DNA of 64,000 bases from Candidatus Microgenomates bacterium. Lineage in GTDB: Bacteria; Patescibacteriota; Microgenomatia; Daviesbacterales; UBA10151. Where the stretch lies: positions 1,328 through 65,327 of the forward strand of contig JACOYE010000009.1 in NCBI GenBank assembly GCA_016182045.1, written 5' to 3'. The position numbers and the translations under genes were made by a program. A model generated the notes under the pieces. It worked only from the letters and a program-made list of their open reading frames with translations, was not told the origin of the DNA and made no database searches. Shown here piece by piece: positions 1,713 through 63,705 of the stretch; position 1 is the first letter of the stretch, and every line of letters starts with the position of its first letter.

Positions 1713-2060
1713 TCACTTTGTCAAGCTGTCAACTTCTTTTAACCGCACCAAAGCCACATTAATTTCTTTTGTAGGAGTTTTATTAGTCTTTTTAACAAAA
1801 GCGTGGAGCAATAAAACTTGTTTTTCCTGGCGGGTTACATATAAAATCCTTACACTATCTTCTCCTAAAATTCTGATCTCCCAGAGTGGAGTTCCAGTTA
1901 ACTTTTTAATATGTGGGGTAACAGAAGTTAATCCATACTCTTCTATATTAGAAAAAATTCTTAAAGCTTTAACTTTAGCTTTCAAATTAACATCTAGAAA
2001 CTCTTTTACAGGACTGTTACCAGAAAGTAAAATATAGTAATTAACTTTCCATTTATCCAT
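1713..2060 (-). CDS. RelE/ParE-superfamily toxin, Gp49/HigB-like (DUF891)
   Basis: Motifs typical of the phage Gp49-like HigB family: PHIKKL, LWEIRI, RILY and LLHAFVKKTNKTP. Confidence 0.7.
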   Translation of the reverse strand: MDKWKVNYYILLSGNSPVKEFLDVNLKAKVKALRIFSNIEEYGLTSVTPHIKKLTGTPLWEIRILGEDSVRILYVTRQEKQVLLLHAFVKKTNKTPTKEINVALVRLKEVDSLTK

Positions 2061-2065
2061 TGAGA

Positions 2066-2218
2066 CTATTTCTTTTCTTTTTTTAAGTCTCTTGTACTTA
2101 TTAAGACTACTAATGGTTTTCCAGACCGGGTTATAAGAATCTTTTTTCTACCAAAATGAACTTCATTTAAAACCTCTGCAAAATTTTGTCTGGCATATTT
2201 TGCTGTAACAGTTTTCAT
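2066..2218 (-). CDS. Phd/YefM-family antitoxin
   Basis: Internal Met start gives MKTVTAKYARQNFAEVLNEV...GKPLVVLIS, the Phd/YefM signature. The ORF-track start at 2254 adds 12 N-terminal residues with little support. Confidence 0.6.
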   Translation of the reverse strand: MKTVTAKYARQNFAEVLNEVHFGRKKILITRSGKPLVVLISTRDLKKEKK

Positions 2219-2474
2219 TAATAATATTCTATTAACTAAGAGTCTAAAATGCAAATTGTGTACATTTGATACACTTTGTATATATTGACAAGTAGATTTA
2301 AATACAGTTATTATTAAAAAGATATGCTAGACATCAATGTTACATACGGGAATAGCAAATTGAGTAATTGTAAAATGAGTAATTTTCATTTCCTCAAAGA
2401 ATAATTCCCAATAAAATAATTTAATTGGTTAGTTAAATTAGGCCTAATTAACTCCCGGAAAGCGGTGAGTTAAT

Positions 2475-2660
2475 ATGTCAACAATAAGCGGTGGTAGAAA
2501 AGGTCGAAAGATTGGACGTAACAAAGCAAAGTGCGAAAGATACAGGCTTTCCCACCGCCGAGAGAAAAATAAAATTAGAAAAATTCTGAAGCATCTTAAA
2601 AAGCATCCAAATAATACGGCTGCATTAAGGAGGATTGAAGAATTAAAAAGAATAATTTAA
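2475..2660 (+). CDS. small highly basic protein (hypothetical)
   Basis: 61 aa and rich in K and R. It directly precedes a GC-rich structured region. No family recognised. Confidence 0.3.
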   Translation: MSTISGGRKGRKIGRNKAKCERYRLSHRREKNKIRKILKHLKKHPNNTAALRRIEELKRII

Positions 2661-2664
2661 TAAC

Positions 2665-3030
2665 AGGTGGAGGGATAAGCTGACCCCCTCATAATTCCGC
2701 AAGGATAAGTAGAGTTCTGCAAGGTTGCGCGGCATCTAGGCGGGAAACTCCCGACGTAGGTCTAGTAACAACCAGCCTGTTTTGAAATTATTTTAATGGG
2801 TAGTGGCTGAATAATCCGCTATGCAGGGATAAAGCGGCTTCTGCTCCGATGAAAATCGGAGAGCCAACGGCAAGTGCTGAGGCTAAACAGGAGTGCTGGG
2901 AGCCAAAATTGGTTTGACCTGAACCCAAACCGGTCTAACTACTGCAGAGGCTCCAAAACTTGGAAGAGTAGGTTAAGAAGAGGAGAGAAGTCTCTGAATC
3001 AAGACAATTCTTCCCTACCCACTTATTTTT
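2665..3030. ncRNA. unclassified structured RNA candidate
   Basis: About 360 nt with GC content well above the AT-rich surroundings and no credible ORF. Several GNRA-capped hairpins are present (CTCCGAT-GAAA-ATCGGAG, CGGGA-AAC-TCCCG, GGTTTG...CAAACC). The class is unresolved. It is not RNase P, which lies at 34549-34909. Confidence 0.4.
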
Positions 3031-3083
3031 AAGCAAATTTTAGGATTTTTGGGAAATATTGTCTAGCATGGTAAGATTATTTT

Positions 3084-3542
3084 GTGAAGACTGTTTTTGT
3101 TATCATTGCAGTGTTTGCTGTTTTGGTAGCTAGTATCATTTATCTAAACAGATCGAAAATCCCCCAACCTGCTACTCAAATTTCAACCCCTACACCTGTA
3201 TTAGAAGAAAAAGTAAATATTAAAGCCACTTTCACCATCATTACCGGCAATATTACAAGAAGTTTTAGGGCTGAAAAATATCATAATCAATCACCTAATG
3301 TTTATATCCAAAATCCCGATCCTTCAGTTGTCTATGTCACCAAAAAAGGAATTAGATGGAGTGATTTTTTTAATACACTGCCAATGAAACTAACCAAAGA
3401 ATGCTTAACAACAGGCGATGGTGAGACTTTTTGTGATGGCAAAGATGGATCCTTAAAATTTTACCTAAATGATATTGAAACTCCAAATCTTTTAGAAGAG
3501 CAAATTAAAGAAGTTGATAAAGCTCTAATTAAATTTAACTAA
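3084..3542 (+). CDS. hypothetical secreted or membrane-anchored protein
   Basis: N-terminal transmembrane or signal segment (VFVIIAVFAVLVASIIYL). No recognisable domain. Confidence 0.45.
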   Translation: MKTVFVIIAVFAVLVASIIYLNRSKIPQPATQISTPTPVLEEKVNIKATFTIITGNITRSFRAEKYHNQSPNVYIQNPDPSVVYVTKKGIRWSDFFNTLPMKLTKECLTTGDGETFCDGKDGSLKFYLNDIETPNLLEEQIKEVDKALIKFN

Positions 3543-11543: not shown

Positions 11544-11548
11544 CTAAC

Positions 11549-11770
11549 TATTCTTTCGGGGTTTTGTGTAAGTCAAAATCGGTGGTAAAACTCCACGATC
11601 CCGCACCGTCTGGTGCAGGAACGAACTGGTGAAAATCCAGTAGCGACCGTACAGTCGGAATGAAAGAAAGACGTCGTCCCCGCGAAAGCGGGGAACCATA
11701 AAATAATTATATGGATCCCAGACTTGATCTGGAATGACTGATGAATTTAGCCCCGAAAGGGGCTTTTTTG
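11549..11770 (+). ncRNA. orphan small RNA (~220 nt), class unknown
   Basis: Its own promoter lies upstream. It is GC-rich with multiple hairpins (GCACC-GTCT-GGTGC, ACTGG-TGAAAAT-CCAGT, CCCCGC-GAAA-GCGGGG). It ends in a canonical intrinsic terminator (AGCCCCGAAAGGGGCT plus T6 at 11749-11770). No + strand gene follows, and the minus-strand ORF over it looks spurious. Confidence 0.5.
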
Positions 11771-32962: not shown

Positions 32963-34495
32963 TTAGGATTCATCTCTGGCCCGATACTGTAGTGCCTCAG
33001 CTATATGTTCGGTTAGAATATTTTCTGAAGAAGCCAAATCAGCAATTGTTCTTGCCAGTTTCAAAACTCTATGATAACCTCTGGCAGATAGATTCAAAGA
33101 AGAGATGGCCATTTTTAAAAGCTCTAATCCATCTTGGGTAATGGAACAATACTCCTTTATATCCTGATTGCTCATTTCCGAATTAGTTAAAATCCTACCT
33201 TTAAATCTATCTTGTTGAATTTTTCTTGCACCCCTCACCTTATCTCTGATTGTTTTAGAATCTTCTGCCACCAATTCGGCAGATAATTTATCCACCTCCA
33301 CTGCAGGTACTTCTAAATAGATATCAATCCGATCCAAGAGAGGTCCAGAAATCCTACGTTTATATTTGGCAATCTGTCCTGGCATACAGCTACAAGAGCG
33401 TTTTCTATCTCCCAAGAAACCACAAGGGCAGGGATTTTGAGCGGCCATCAGGATAAATTGGGCGGGAAAAGTCAAAGATCCTGAGGCACGAGAAATGGTG
33501 ATTTTATGATCCTCTAGAGGTTGGCGTAAGCTTTCCAAGACCTGCCGCGGGAACTCCGGCAACTCATCCATAAATAAAACTCCTCTGTGAGCCAAAGATA
33601 TCTCTCCAGGTCTTGGGGAATTTCCACCACCAATTAAACCTATATGAGAAGCGCTATGATGAGGTGATCTGAAGGGACGAGTAGTAATAAGTGATAAGCC
33701 ATTTGGCAAAAGTCCTGCAATAGAATAAATTTTGGTAGCTTCAATTGCCTCGGAAAAAGTTAAGGGAGGTAAAATGGAAGGAAAAGCTCTGGCAAGCATA
33801 GTTTTACCGGCACCTGGCGGACCTTTTAGTAAAATATTGTGTCCGCCGGCCGCCGCAATCTCTAAGGCCCTTTTGGCCTGTTCTTGTCCTTTGATCTGAG
33901 AAAAATCATATTCATAATTTAAATCATCATCTAAATTGAGTGGCGGTTTAGGAATTGGTTTTATGAATTCCTGTCCCAAAAGTATCTTGATCACCTGCTG
34001 TAAAGAATTGGGGGCAAAAACTTTAATTCCTTCAATGATGGCTGCCTCTCCTCCATTTTCTTTGGGAACTAAAATATTTTTGAAACCGATCTCTTTTGCC
34101 AGAATTGCCAATGGTAAAATGCCATGTGTTTTTCTCAATGTCCCATCTAAAGATACTTCACCAACCACCAAAGTTTCATTAAGATTCAAAGAAGAATTTT
34201 GATGAATAATTTGACCTGACGATAAAAGTAAACCCAAAGCTATTGGCAAATCAAAGTAGGGTCCTTCTTTTGGTAAATCTGCAGGAGCTAAATTAACAGT
34301 GATCTTTTTAGCTGGGAACTCTATGTCACAATTTCTGATGGCAGATCTGACTCTTTCTTTAGACTCCTCGACTGCTCGATCAGCTAAACCGACTATGGTA
34401 AATGAAGGTAAACCTTTAGAGGCTATATCAACTTCAACAGTGACTGTTATGGCATCTAGTCCAACGTTAGCGCCAGAAAAAATTTTGGCAAACAT
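32963..34495 (-). CDS. comM: YifB/ComM-family Mg-chelatase-like AAA+ ATPase
   Basis: N-terminal MFAKIFSGANVGLDAITVTVEVD, Walker A GPPGAGKT, and a ChlI-like C-terminal region. Confidence 0.8.
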   Translation of the reverse strand: MFAKIFSGANVGLDAITVTVEVDIASKGLPSFTIVGLADRAVEESKERVRSAIRNCDIEFPAKKITVNLAPADLPKEGPYFDLPIALGLLLSSGQIIHQNSSLNLNETLVVGEVSLDGTLRKTHGILPLAILAKEIGFKNILVPKENGGEAAIIEGIKVFAPNSLQQVIKILLGQEFIKPIPKPPLNLDDDLNYEYDFSQIKGQEQAKRALEIAAAGGHNILLKGPPGAGKTMLARAFPSILPPLTFSEAIEATKIYSIAGLLPNGLSLITTRPFRSPHHSASHIGLIGGGNSPRPGEISLAHRGVLFMDELPEFPRQVLESLRQPLEDHKITISRASGSLTFPAQFILMAAQNPCPCGFLGDRKRSCSCMPGQIAKYKRRISGPLLDRIDIYLEVPAVEVDKLSAELVAEDSKTIRDKVRGARKIQQDRFKGRILTNSEMSNQDIKEYCSITQDGLELLKMAISSLNLSARGYHRVLKLARTIADLASSENILTEHIAEALQYRARDES

Positions 34496-34548
34496 TTATC
34501 TTAGTATATAATAAACTGAAATTTTGGAGAATAATTGAAGTAAAAATA

Positions 34549-34909
34549 GTGCCTAGGAAGAGAGTAAGCCAGATTCTGTTTTCTCGCTTCGCGAAGCGAG
34601 TAGATGATCATTTATCTAATGCTCCTCATTTCGACTAGTTGGCGAGCAGCCTAAGTCGGTTCTAGGATTGCAGCGGGGAGGATTGCCCTTCGACTCGTCC
34701 CGATTACATCGGGACTCGCTCAGGGCTATAGCCCTTTGCTTATCGAATACCCTGTGGCTTGATCGTTTCACTCGGCGCCACCCGAATCGTCACTGTTGCT
34801 CTATACTCGCGGTCACCCGGTCTCGCCTTGCGGCGGACACCCTACTCTTTGCTGTCTGGACTTTCCTGTCCCGATTTAATCGGGACCGATCATCCTTCTT
34901 CCTAGGCTT
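34549..34909 (-). ncRNA. rnpB: RNase P RNA (bacterial type A-like)
   Basis: On the minus strand: P1 AGCCTAGGAAGA paired with TCTTCCTAGGC; P2 GATGATC with GATCATC; P3 hairpin GGTCCCGATTAAATCGGGAC; universally conserved ACAGGAAAGTCCAGAC (P4 5' strand); CAACAGTGA (J11/12-like); P4 3' strand CTAGAACCGACTTAG. A TATAAT -10 sits just upstream. The overlapping + strand ORF 34668-34967 is spurious. Confidence 0.8.
34583..34600. repeat. perfect GC palindrome CTCGCTTCGCGAAGCGAG embedded in rnpB
   Basis: It lies between the P2 3' strand and the P1 3' strand of the RNase P RNA and belongs to the same repeat family as the coding-region insertions. Confidence 0.6.
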
Positions 34910-59716: not shown

Positions 59717-59855
59717 AAAAAAACCTCTCATTCGAGAGGCTTAAGTTTCCTCATCCGCCATTAGGCGAGACGGGCACATCTTCCTCTCGGATTGGCACCG
59801 TTTCTTTTCGGTTGCCGTCATGCACCATACGGTACATGAACTCTTGATGCATTAT
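59717..59855 (-). promoter_or_regulatory. SAM-I-clan (S-box-like) riboswitch with terminator, upstream of metK
   Basis: Read on the minus strand: P1 and J1/2 ATCAAGAG; a GCAACC-GAAAAGAAA-CGGTGCCAATCC core matching SAM-I GCAACC...GGUGCCAAUUCC; 3' P1 GGATGAG; then terminator CCTCTC-GAAT-GAGAGG plus T7. P2 is divergent and lacks the GGAGGGA k-turn. Confidence 0.6.
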
Positions 59856-63390: not shown

Positions 63391-63705
63391 TTAAAAAAGC
63401 CCTTGCCTAATCACCAAAAATGATGATCAGACAAGGGCCTTCAAAGGCGGTACCACCTTGTTTTCCATTATTGCCATTAAAAAACTCACCGTGTGGTGAG
63501 TCTCGAAATTTTAGCAAAAATGCTTATTCTCGAGTGCTCCGATTTCTTACGACACACTCATGCGTTGTTACGGTTCGCACCCGGCAAAGCTTTTGGCTTA
63601 CAACTCCAGAGGGTAATTCGAATAAATTGCTTGGTAAGCTTTCTCCAACCGCTTACTCTCAAATGACCCCAATTTACTCTACTATTTCTCTATCACAGTC
63701 TTTAC
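63391..63705 (-). promoter_or_regulatory. T-box leader (tRNA-sensing riboswitch) with promoter and terminator
   Basis: Read on the minus strand: promoter TTGACA-16-TATACT; AGTAGAGTA Stem-I-base motif; T-box sequence AACAAGGTGGTACCGCC (consensus AGGGUGGNACCGCG). A canonical antiterminator (A1 CAAGG with CCTTG, UGGU bulge, A2 GCC-UUUGAA-GGC) is mutually exclusive with the terminator GCCCTTG...CAAGGGC plus T6. A candidate AUG-A specifier lies ~160 nt from the TSS. Confidence 0.7.

Follow-up and report, generated by a model that had tools for sequence, protein, structure and literature searches.

In the 64,000-nucleotide stretch of Candidatus Microgenomates DNA analyzed here (called the window throughout), a gene-free gap runs from the stop codon of a small open reading frame (ORF) at 2660 to the next gene at 3084, and this gap holds an RNA gene of about 360 nt, at 2663–3021 on the + strand, which is made of two folded modules that we call D1 and D2. 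The small ORF (2475–2660, + strand, NCBI HYT18_02505) encodes a Lys/Arg-rich protein of 61 residues. Farther upstream, and divergent from the RNA, lies a gene for a Phd/YefM-like protein (2066–2218, − strand) of about 50 residues when read from an internal ATG, the mechanical ORF reaching 2254. The space between the divergent genes contains a near-invariant element of about 40 nt, AAATTGTGTACATTTGATACACTTTGTATATATTGACAAG (2253–2292), a putative operator of the Phd/YefM type. We consider it fairly probable that 2663–3021 represents a new family of structured, noncoding RNA that acts in trans in bacteria of the Microgenomates group of the candidate phyla radiation (CPR). The + strand RNA is real and modular, its fold is conserved through covariation, and it is linked to the truncated Phd/YefM-fold gene and to the block formed by the operator and the promoter.

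An earlier note on this DNA, made from the letters alone, had described an unclassified structured noncoding RNA at 2665–3030, nearly the same extent as the homologous unit delimited by our nhmmer family profile (2664–3024). The sharp rise in GC content that it reported was borne out, as the G+C fraction is 0.42–0.50 across 2601–3000 and 0.25–0.38 in either flank, with 0.477 for the whole RNA. Its view that no ORF is plausible here also held, since the only ORFs within the RNA encode 52 amino acids (+ strand, 2874–3032) and 46 amino acids (− strand, 2788–2928), neither has a Pfam match, and both frames are interrupted by stops and frameshifts in the homologues. When folding was compared with dinucleotide shuffles, the + strand gave z = −3.69 (0 of 100 shuffles as good), while the − strand was no better than shuffled sequence (z = −0.67); folded alone, D2 gave z = −4.64 and D1 z = −2.56. 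Several GNRA-capped helices had been mentioned, and two were confirmed, at 2696–2705 (UCC-GCAA-GGA) and at 2844–2861 (CUCCGAU-GAAA-AUCGGAG). A GAAG loop at 2987–2990 is conserved as well.

Eight homologues were recovered, which together with the window make nine copies with pairwise identities of 70–91%, from Daviesbacteria, Curtissbacteria, Roizmanbacteria, and Woykebacteria genomes and from metagenome contigs. Locus L003, on an ENA contig, was reached through homologues of the small protein; its RNA is 86% identical to that of the window and its small protein 67%, so conservation is higher in the RNA than in the protein gene beside it. A strict pattern scan of metagenomes with GGAGAGCYAACGGCAAGTGCTG returned one locus, L010. 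The open − strand frame of the RNA was translated and searched against a protein database for miscalled ORFs, and a 66-residue "protein" from a public metagenome (P0012) led to contig L011, whose RNA copy is 75% identical. A looser pattern of the invariant core, run over the GTDB species genomes, gave L013 (Candidatus Woykebacteria), L015, and L016, all confirmed by nhmmer, together with two further matches that were due to chance. The last two, L017 (Roizmanbacteria) and L018 (Curtissbacteria), were obtained through the neighboring Phd-like protein. L015 and L016 are labeled Gammaproteobacteria in GTDB, which looks like a placeholder, as their low G+C and gene content fit CPR; the Phd protein on the L016 contig (P0039) carries the NCBI name Candidatus Daviesbacteria. 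No second or remote copy of the RNA was found by nhmmer or a D1 covariance model in the window and the transfer RNA (tRNA)-array loci described below, the covariance model detecting exactly one copy in the window (157 bits), and none was found in phage and plasmid collections (by BLAST) or in viral collections (by pattern scan).

The comparison among relatives that the earlier note had proposed was made on a seven-sequence alignment, for which RNAalifold gave a consensus of 98 pairs in 15 helices. Standard pairs fill 97.9% of the pair cells. Two-sided changes occur at 25 of the 98 pairs, as against 10.1 ± 2.2 in column shuffles (0 of 500 reached 25) and just 2–7 when the 3′ partners were slid by 1–3 columns, and an eight-sequence alignment gave 28 of 101. 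In P2, GAGGG/CCCUC, GAAGG/CCUUC, and GAGAG/CUCUC replace one another across copies. P3 keeps the form UCC-GNAA-GGA with a closing pair that is U-A, C-G, G-U, or A-U and with GCAA, GAAA, or GUAA loops. P5 appears as CUAGGC/GGUCUAG or UUUGGC/GCCAAA, one pair of P7 as U-A, G-C, or A-U, and P12 as GAGCC/GGCUC or GGACC/GGUUC. In P9, six of seven pairs vary on both sides (CUCCGAU-GAAA-AUCGGAG, CUUCUGA-GAAA-UCAGGAG, GUCUGAC-GCAA-GUUGGGC, and CUCCGGC…GUCGGAG). Covariation was also observed in P1, P13, and P14–P16, of which P16 is an apical hairpin with an invariant GAAG loop. Because the many switches from G-U to G-C or A-U fit the + strand only, they identify the + strand as the one that is folded.

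D1 (2663–2780, about 118 nt) is a multi-way junction with four hairpins, closed by ACAGGU (2663–2668) pairing with GCCUGU (2775–2780). In the window, this stem extends to 17 nt (2651–2667 with 2776–2792) by running into a flanking A-run and U-run, and in L011 A-U pairs of the extension are swapped to G-C and U-A. The hairpins are P2 (2670–2674/2686–2690), P3 with its GNRA cap (2696–2705), P4 (about 2716–2735), and P5 (2736–2765), and they are followed by an invariant single strand, UAACAACCAGCC, at 2766–2777. A linker rich in A and U (2781–2796), which varies in sequence and length among the homologues, connects D1 to D2.

D2 (2797–3021, about 225 nt) branches into four arms, one of which is a three-way junction. 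Its closing stem pairs UGGGUAG (2797–2803) with CUACCCA (3015–3021) and reads UUCAUGG/CCAUGAA in L011. Within it, P7 lies at about 2815–2831, and P8 surrounds the three-way junction formed by P9 (2844–2861, GNRA-capped) and P10/P11 (2862–2884). The most conserved segment of the family, ACGGCAAGUGCUGAGGCUAAACAG (2867–2890), lies in this junction; it is identical in the seven copies that have a full center, and L018 has a single C-to-U change. P12 (2900–2904/2949–2953) encloses the variable hairpin P13, and P14–P16 occupy 2962–3014, with the GAAG loop at their tip. Directly after the closing helices comes the U-rich tract CUUAUUUUU (3022–3030), and most copies have such a U-rich tail behind the RNA. 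A simple terminator scan made no call at 3022–3030; the tract is probably the 3′ end or termination region.

Two homologues bear on whether the modules belong to one molecule. In L010, D2 is intact (72–88% identical to the other D2 sequences), D1 is reduced to a 12-nt remnant, and a new TATAAT-like box lies upstream. In L017, D1, P6/P7, and P14–P16 are intact and the center of D2 has been swapped for an A-run and an unrelated hairpin. These loci, the separate closing helices, the variable linker, and the fact that each module folds better alone than its shuffles do would suit two cotranscribed RNAs that are split at the linker and have functions of their own. We regard this refinement as possible and on the unlikely side, because both domains occur in a fixed order with a short linker in seven of the nine copies and the two exceptions may be decaying, the D2 remnant of L017 folding with z = −1.65.

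Turning to what surrounds the RNA, we found that the Phd-like protein matches Pfam PF02604 (E 2.2e-13) over profile positions 1–48 of 74. Its homologues form 105 clusters with 65–93% identity, all with PF02604 and nearly all 48–54 residues long, under the names Daviesbacteria, Levybacteria, Curtissbacteria, Roizmanbacteria, and Patescibacteria. Since the match ends at position 48 of 74 and the proteins are only 48–54 residues long, the family corresponds to the N-terminal half of a Phd/YefM antitoxin, for DNA binding and dimerization, without the toxin-binding tail. The gene was seen adjoining the RNA in the window, L003, L013, L016, L017, and L018. In an alignment of four loci, the AAATTGTGTACATTTGATACACTTTGTATATATTGACAAG block alone was conserved in the intergenic region, the remaining spacer being unalignable. 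The element contains three hexamers spaced 9 bp apart, TGTACA (2259–2264), GATACA (2268–2273), and TGTATA (2277–2282), which as TGTACA, GATACA, and TGTATA or TGTACC are kept in seven loci and lie 41–64 bp upstream of the Phd start codon. In E. coli, the YefM operator consists of paired TGTACA motifs no more than 80 bp from the start codon (PMC1802561). A 20-mer from this element, TGTGTACWTTTGATACAYTT, occurs once in the window, where zero occurrences are expected, and once each in L003, L013, L015, L016, L017, and L018. Counted together, the Phd-like gene and the 20-mer are present in seven of seven loci with upstream DNA, L010 excepted.

The operator runs into the best σ70-type promoter in 2000–3300, TTGACA-18-TATTAT on the + strand (2285–2314), which agrees with the consensus at 11 of 12 positions and from which transcription is expected to start near 2321. 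Its −35 box, TTGACA, abuts the operator and is invariant in L003, L013, L015, L016, and L018, with TTGACT in L017. In a blind test, two Phd homologues were picked by organism name alone (Roizmanbacteria and Curtissbacteria), and both loci proved to have a gene-free gap of 580–740 nt upstream that held the operator and the RNA in divergent orientation. The outer flanks vary from locus to locus (HigBA, a LigT-like gene, a DUF87 ATPase, and others), and because these outer neighbors differ, the trio of Phd-like gene, operator, and RNA stands out as a conserved unit. On these grounds, it is probable that the RNA promoter is controlled by the Phd-like protein. At L017, we also noted an insert of about 145 nt (about 2790–2935, read on the − strand) between the operator hexamers and the −35 box, with terminal inverted repeats (CGTAACCGTTCAGGA and TCCTGAACGGTTAC) and a duplication of 8 bp (TTTAATAC). 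The insert has the look of a miniature inverted-repeat element, and D2 is gutted at this same locus.

In L013, L015, L016, and L018, the RNA begins at a constant 108–113 nt past the −35 box. The leader sequences of these four loci are unrelated, but all of them close with a hairpin and then an A-run. The window's leader carries an insertion of about 270 nt that contains the small ORF, and in L003 both a tRNA-Cys and the small ORF stand between promoter and RNA. Because the L003 tRNA sits in the transcription unit of the RNA, we infer that the precursor is processed. In the window, 16 nt of the leader (2407–2422) are 94% complementary to the linker and the start of D2 (2785–2800). This pair might fold into a stem that encloses the small ORF and D1 and serves processing, and it may also be due to chance because the sequences are AT-rich.

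Taken together, these observations suggest the following mechanism. The RNA would be transcribed from a strong σ70 promoter with its −35 box joined directly to an operator of the TGTACA type, and this operator would be bound by the divergently encoded Phd/YefM-fold protein of about 50 residues, probably as a dimer-forming repressor. The protein would be an antitoxin reduced to its DNA-binding half, with the toxin-binding tail gone, and its dimer would repress the RNA promoter and its own promoter, thereby setting the levels of both products. The primary transcript would be a precursor of the stable-RNA type, with a leader of about 80 nt that contains a hairpin and, in some lineages, a tRNA and/or the mRNA for the small basic protein, and it would be trimmed to the folded RNA or to two RNAs. 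D1 and D2 would fold independently and offer the invariant segments of their junctions and loops to a cellular partner that is itself conserved, the molecule being either a protein-binding RNA, as part of a ribonucleoprotein (RNP) or as a regulator, or a ribozyme. That the family is a real and new class of structured RNA appears very likely; that it is specifically an RNP or regulatory RNA is a tentative suggestion.

Several points weigh against this proposal. The alignment rests on nine sequences, and the P1 core, P10/P11, and most of P14 are invariant, so that they are silent with respect to covariation. Rival pairings exist in D1, where the P4 hairpin competes with GGUUG/CAACC, and in D2, where GGCUG/CGGCU is an alternative to lower P8. 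Spacings of 9 and 18 bp separate the hexamers, compared with 12 bp in E. coli yefM (PMC1802561). At L010, the RNA lies beside a VapBC-type pair and the operator is absent. The adjacency of the Phd-like gene and the RNA could also be a gene order inherited within one bacterial class. Finally, transcription, processing, and repression, like the trans action and the molecular function of the RNA, are read from sequence.

The gene next door also raises the question of whether the RNA is the effector of a toxin–antitoxin (TA)-like or defense module, in which the antitoxin-derived Phd-like protein, instead of neutralizing a protein toxin, would gate an RNA with a harmful or protective action. The Phd/YefM-fold gene and the operator are the sole constant neighbors of the RNA, the N-terminal antitoxin domain is present and the toxin-binding region is absent, and there is no Doc or YoeB gene; in L013, L016, and L017, no toxin gene adjoins the Phd-like gene. 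TA genes do lie near several copies (HigBA in the window and L018, VapBC in L010). The Phd-like, Gp49 (HigB-like toxin), and helix-turn-helix (HTH; HigA-like) genes form a string at 1410–2254 (− strand) in the window and at 3001–3883 in L018, in which the Gp49-HTH pair is self-contained. L013, L016, and L017 lack this string. The solo Phd-like gene may have arisen next to the HigBA pair, or the two may work together. Against such a module, the Phd-like protein is 65–93% identical across several candidate phyla, which is unusually high conservation for an antitoxin. There is one RNA copy per locus and none in the phage, plasmid, and viral collections, so the RNA has the look of a core gene and not of a mobile defense island. 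It has neither the tandem repeats of a type III system nor a conserved ORF for a type I toxin, and a search of 2200–3200 found no tandem repeats and no adjacent endoribonuclease toxin gene. We consider this explanation doubtful.

We compared the RNA with 4227 Rfam families by cmscan, using the gathering threshold and E ≤ 0.5 on the window, E ≤ 10 on 2300–3300, and E ≤ 0.1 to 10 on 15 related loci. None of the nine copies credibly matched any family on the RNA at up to E ≤ 10. Rfam silence, the + strand fold, and the covariation agree with the earlier description of an unclassified structured RNA, a status that also survived the suggested check against the signal recognition particle (SRP), 6S, transfer-messenger RNA (tmRNA), and intron models. 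ARAGORN, with permuted forms included, found no tRNA or tmRNA at the RNA in the window or the RNA loci, and with the silent tmRNA model this agrees with the earlier finding that tmRNA is not supported. RNase P had been excluded because it is found elsewhere, and indeed a class A RNase P RNA lies at 34549–34905 (− strand, 107 bits), with no match in 2300–3300. The 6S model (RF00013) had no match, and two multi-branched domains with 15 helices do not resemble 6S RNA, a single long irregular helix of about 180 nt with a large central bubble. The OLE, ROOL, GOLLD, and raiA covariance models were silent at E ≤ 10. No IscB/TnpB, IS110 recombinase, or reverse transcriptase gene is adjacent (the neighbors seen at RNA loci being the Phd-like gene, HigBA, a membrane protein, a VIT-family protein, and others) and HEARO had no match, which leaves no sign of a guide or partner RNA for a mobile-element nuclease, a recombinase, or a retron (omega RNA/HEARO, bridge RNA, msr-msd). 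A tRNA with a group I intron, considered since tRNA-Ser(UGA) follows the small ORF in relatives, was rejected because there are no tRNA halves, T-arm, or intron match. A search of the literature on noncoding RNA, SRP, and 6S RNA in CPR/Patescibacteria, and a full-text search with invariant sequence strings, returned nothing relevant.

A highly divergent SRP RNA, possibly of the large form with an Alu-like 5′ part, was examined more closely, as a likeness to SRP domain IV had been pointed out. Like 4.5S and the large bacterial SRP RNAs, the molecule is a stable structured RNA with GNRA/GNAR-capped hairpins, it has a short stretch, AGCCAACGGCAAG, that loosely resembles E. coli AGCAGCCAAGGCAG, and no SRP RNA was found elsewhere in the 64-kb window. 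The likeness did not survive. No SRP model, whether small, large, archaeal, or other, matched any of the nine copies (E ≤ 10 for the window region, E ≤ 5–10 for the eight homologous loci), and the Ffh-binding loop motif is absent: no copy has an AGCA(G) motif or a GNAR loop with the AGG/AGCA symmetric loop of helix 8. The GAAA hairpin at 2844–2861 has a 7-bp stem without SRP-type internal loops, and the letters that resemble AGCAGCCAAGGCAG are not the 3′ strand of helix 8; they are paired differently, as the 5′ strand and loop of the separate hairpin P10/P11 (CGGC-AAGU-GCUG) in the three-way junction. L017 has lost exactly this part, which would be surprising for an essential Ffh-binding site. 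The D2 segments GUGGCU…UAAUCCGCU…GCAGGG recall what we take to be helices 3 and 4 of the SRP Alu domain, and no model supports this. We rejected the Alu likeness since in L013 and L011 the putative loop-loop pair changes from G to A with the partner unchanged. An SRP RNA is thus very improbable.

Equally improbable is a cis-acting element, either the 3′ untranslated region of the small gene or a leader or riboswitch of the gene downstream. In the window, the RNA does lie between two + strand genes, 5 nt past the small-ORF stop codon. However, the small ORF is missing from most copies, a U-rich tract follows the RNA, and the downstream genes vary in family and strand (in the window, the next gene is on the + strand and encodes a membrane protein; in L003 and L015, the genes are on the − strand; and in L010, there is an unrelated Zn-ribbon ORF). 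We give next to no credence to a pseudogenized coding remnant, the outcome named in advance as refuting the RNA, or a decayed mobile element such as an intron or insertion sequence (IS) end: ORFs of 46–101 residues can be drawn and P0012 was called as a protein, but the frames are not conserved, the substitutions in helices are compensatory, there is no intron or IS match in Rfam and no transposase or reverse transcriptase nearby, and the only candidates for flanking repeats of a mobile cassette are the extended D1 stem and the AT-rich 16-nt complementarity.

The 61-residue protein had been put forward as an RNA-binding partner, a role that is hard to maintain because its gene is missing from five of the RNA loci (L013, L015, L016, L017, and L018); none was seen in L010 and L011, where the upstream sequence is incomplete. 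Only the window and L003, and probably one JGI contig for which no DNA was available, have it upstream of the RNA. The protein has 11 homologues with 19 invariant residues and is predicted by AlphaFold (pLDDT 83) to fold into a basic tail and a helical hairpin. Searches with Pfam, NCBIfam, PDB profiles, and Foldseek gave no significant relative, with a weak, nonsignificant likeness to uS15-type helices. Directly 5′ of its start codon is a GAAA-capped hairpin (2451–2470, + strand) that belongs to the small-ORF cassette and not to the RNA family. This hairpin covaries, being ACUCCCG-GAAA-GCGGUGAGU in the window and CCACC-GAAA-GGUGG in L003 (1011–1024) and L009 (about 481–494), and is possibly a translational operator or a processing signal. 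In L003 and L009, a conserved Shine-Dalgarno sequence and mini-ORF (AAAGGAG…ATGACGCAGTAG, encoding M-T-Q-stop) lie about 45 nt upstream of the hairpin.

In L004–L009, the small ORF is found inside tRNA arrays, between tRNA-Ser(GCU) and tRNA-Ser(UGA), and the RNA is absent there, as it is from L001 and L002, where the small-protein homologue follows an AP-endonuclease gene. The arrays contain up to 10 tRNAs (L009 108–932; L004 53–1126 and 1205–1396), and that of L004 includes a canonical tmRNA (447–724). It is unusual for a tRNA array to contain a protein gene. From its distribution, the small ORF looks like a lineage-specific passenger cassette that travels in stable-RNA transcription units. 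At about 430–632 of L005 (the same as about 757–959 of L006), some 200 nt between tRNA-Ser(UGA) and tRNA-Asp have no tRNA, tmRNA, or Rfam call and are unlike the RNA studied here; they are possibly a further unclassified RNA.

Other RNA signals were noted elsewhere in the window. Directly 3′ of the RNase P RNA, 34326–34547 (− strand) matched Intron_gpI with 21 bits (E 0.49, gathering threshold 50), which may be chance or a further structured RNA beside rnpB. A T-box leader (63430–63705, − strand, 79.7 bits, gathering threshold 93) and a SAM-I/IV aptamer (59733–59855, − strand, 35.1 bits, gathering threshold 41.1) are probably true, divergent CPR versions that fall below the Rfam thresholds. 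An FMN riboswitch at 11548–11675 (+ strand) scored above threshold.

The arrangement can be compared with several known systems. In E. coli, oxyR-oxyS, gcvA-gcvB, and sgrR-sgrS are regulatory RNAs divergent from their own transcription factors. The present locus likewise has a noncoding RNA gene back-to-back with the gene for a small DNA-binding protein and a putative site in the shared promoter region, but the protein has a Phd/YefM fold and not that of LysR or similar regulators, its regulatory role is a proposed one, and the RNA is about 360 nt with two multi-helix domains in place of a base-pairing small RNA of about 100 nt. With OLE, ROOL, GOLLD, and raiA, the RNA shares its length, covariation, multi-way junctions, abundance of GNRA loops, and narrow taxonomic range, and with ROOL and GOLLD some association with tRNA genes (here L003); it differs from them in having no match to their models and in its size, its CPR hosts, and its conserved protein neighbor. 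Stable-RNA operons and tRNA arrays, which are processed from long precursors, resemble it in the strong promoter, the leader hairpin, the tRNA of L003, and a small gene otherwise found in tRNA arrays, although the main product here is not a tRNA, tmRNA, rRNA, or RNase P RNA. Phd-Doc and YefM-YoeB share the N-terminal Phd/YefM domain, and TGTACA-like hexamers lie no farther than 80 bp from the start codon, as described for yefM (PMC1802561), whereas here the toxin-binding C terminus and the Doc or YoeB gene are missing, the hexamers are 9 bp apart, and an RNA gene on the other strand takes the place of the conserved partner.

CPR bacteria, or Patescibacteria, account for a large part of bacterial diversity; their genomes are tiny, and hardly any of them have been cultured. 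New classes of large structured RNA are rare, and past ones have been ribozymes, RNP scaffolds, or global regulators. Because it is 70–91% identical across several candidate phyla, the RNA likely does something central. A bolder possibility, which we think quite unlikely, is that a truncated antitoxin was recruited as the dedicated switch of a large RNA, catalytic or particle-forming, that belongs to the core genes of the whole CPR superphylum; if true, this would add a new two-gene module of protein and RNA, and a new class of ribozyme or RNP ranking with RNase P, SRP, and 6S RNA. The alignment and coordinates suffice for building a covariance model, for mapping the family across CPR, and for designing probes to be used on metatranscriptomes and co-cultures. 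As judged from the copies compared, the RNA family is apparently widespread in Microgenomates and tied to a domesticated regulator of the antitoxin fold, and an antitoxin fold that serves, as it appears, as the ordinary transcription factor of an RNA gene would bear on how TA parts become domesticated.

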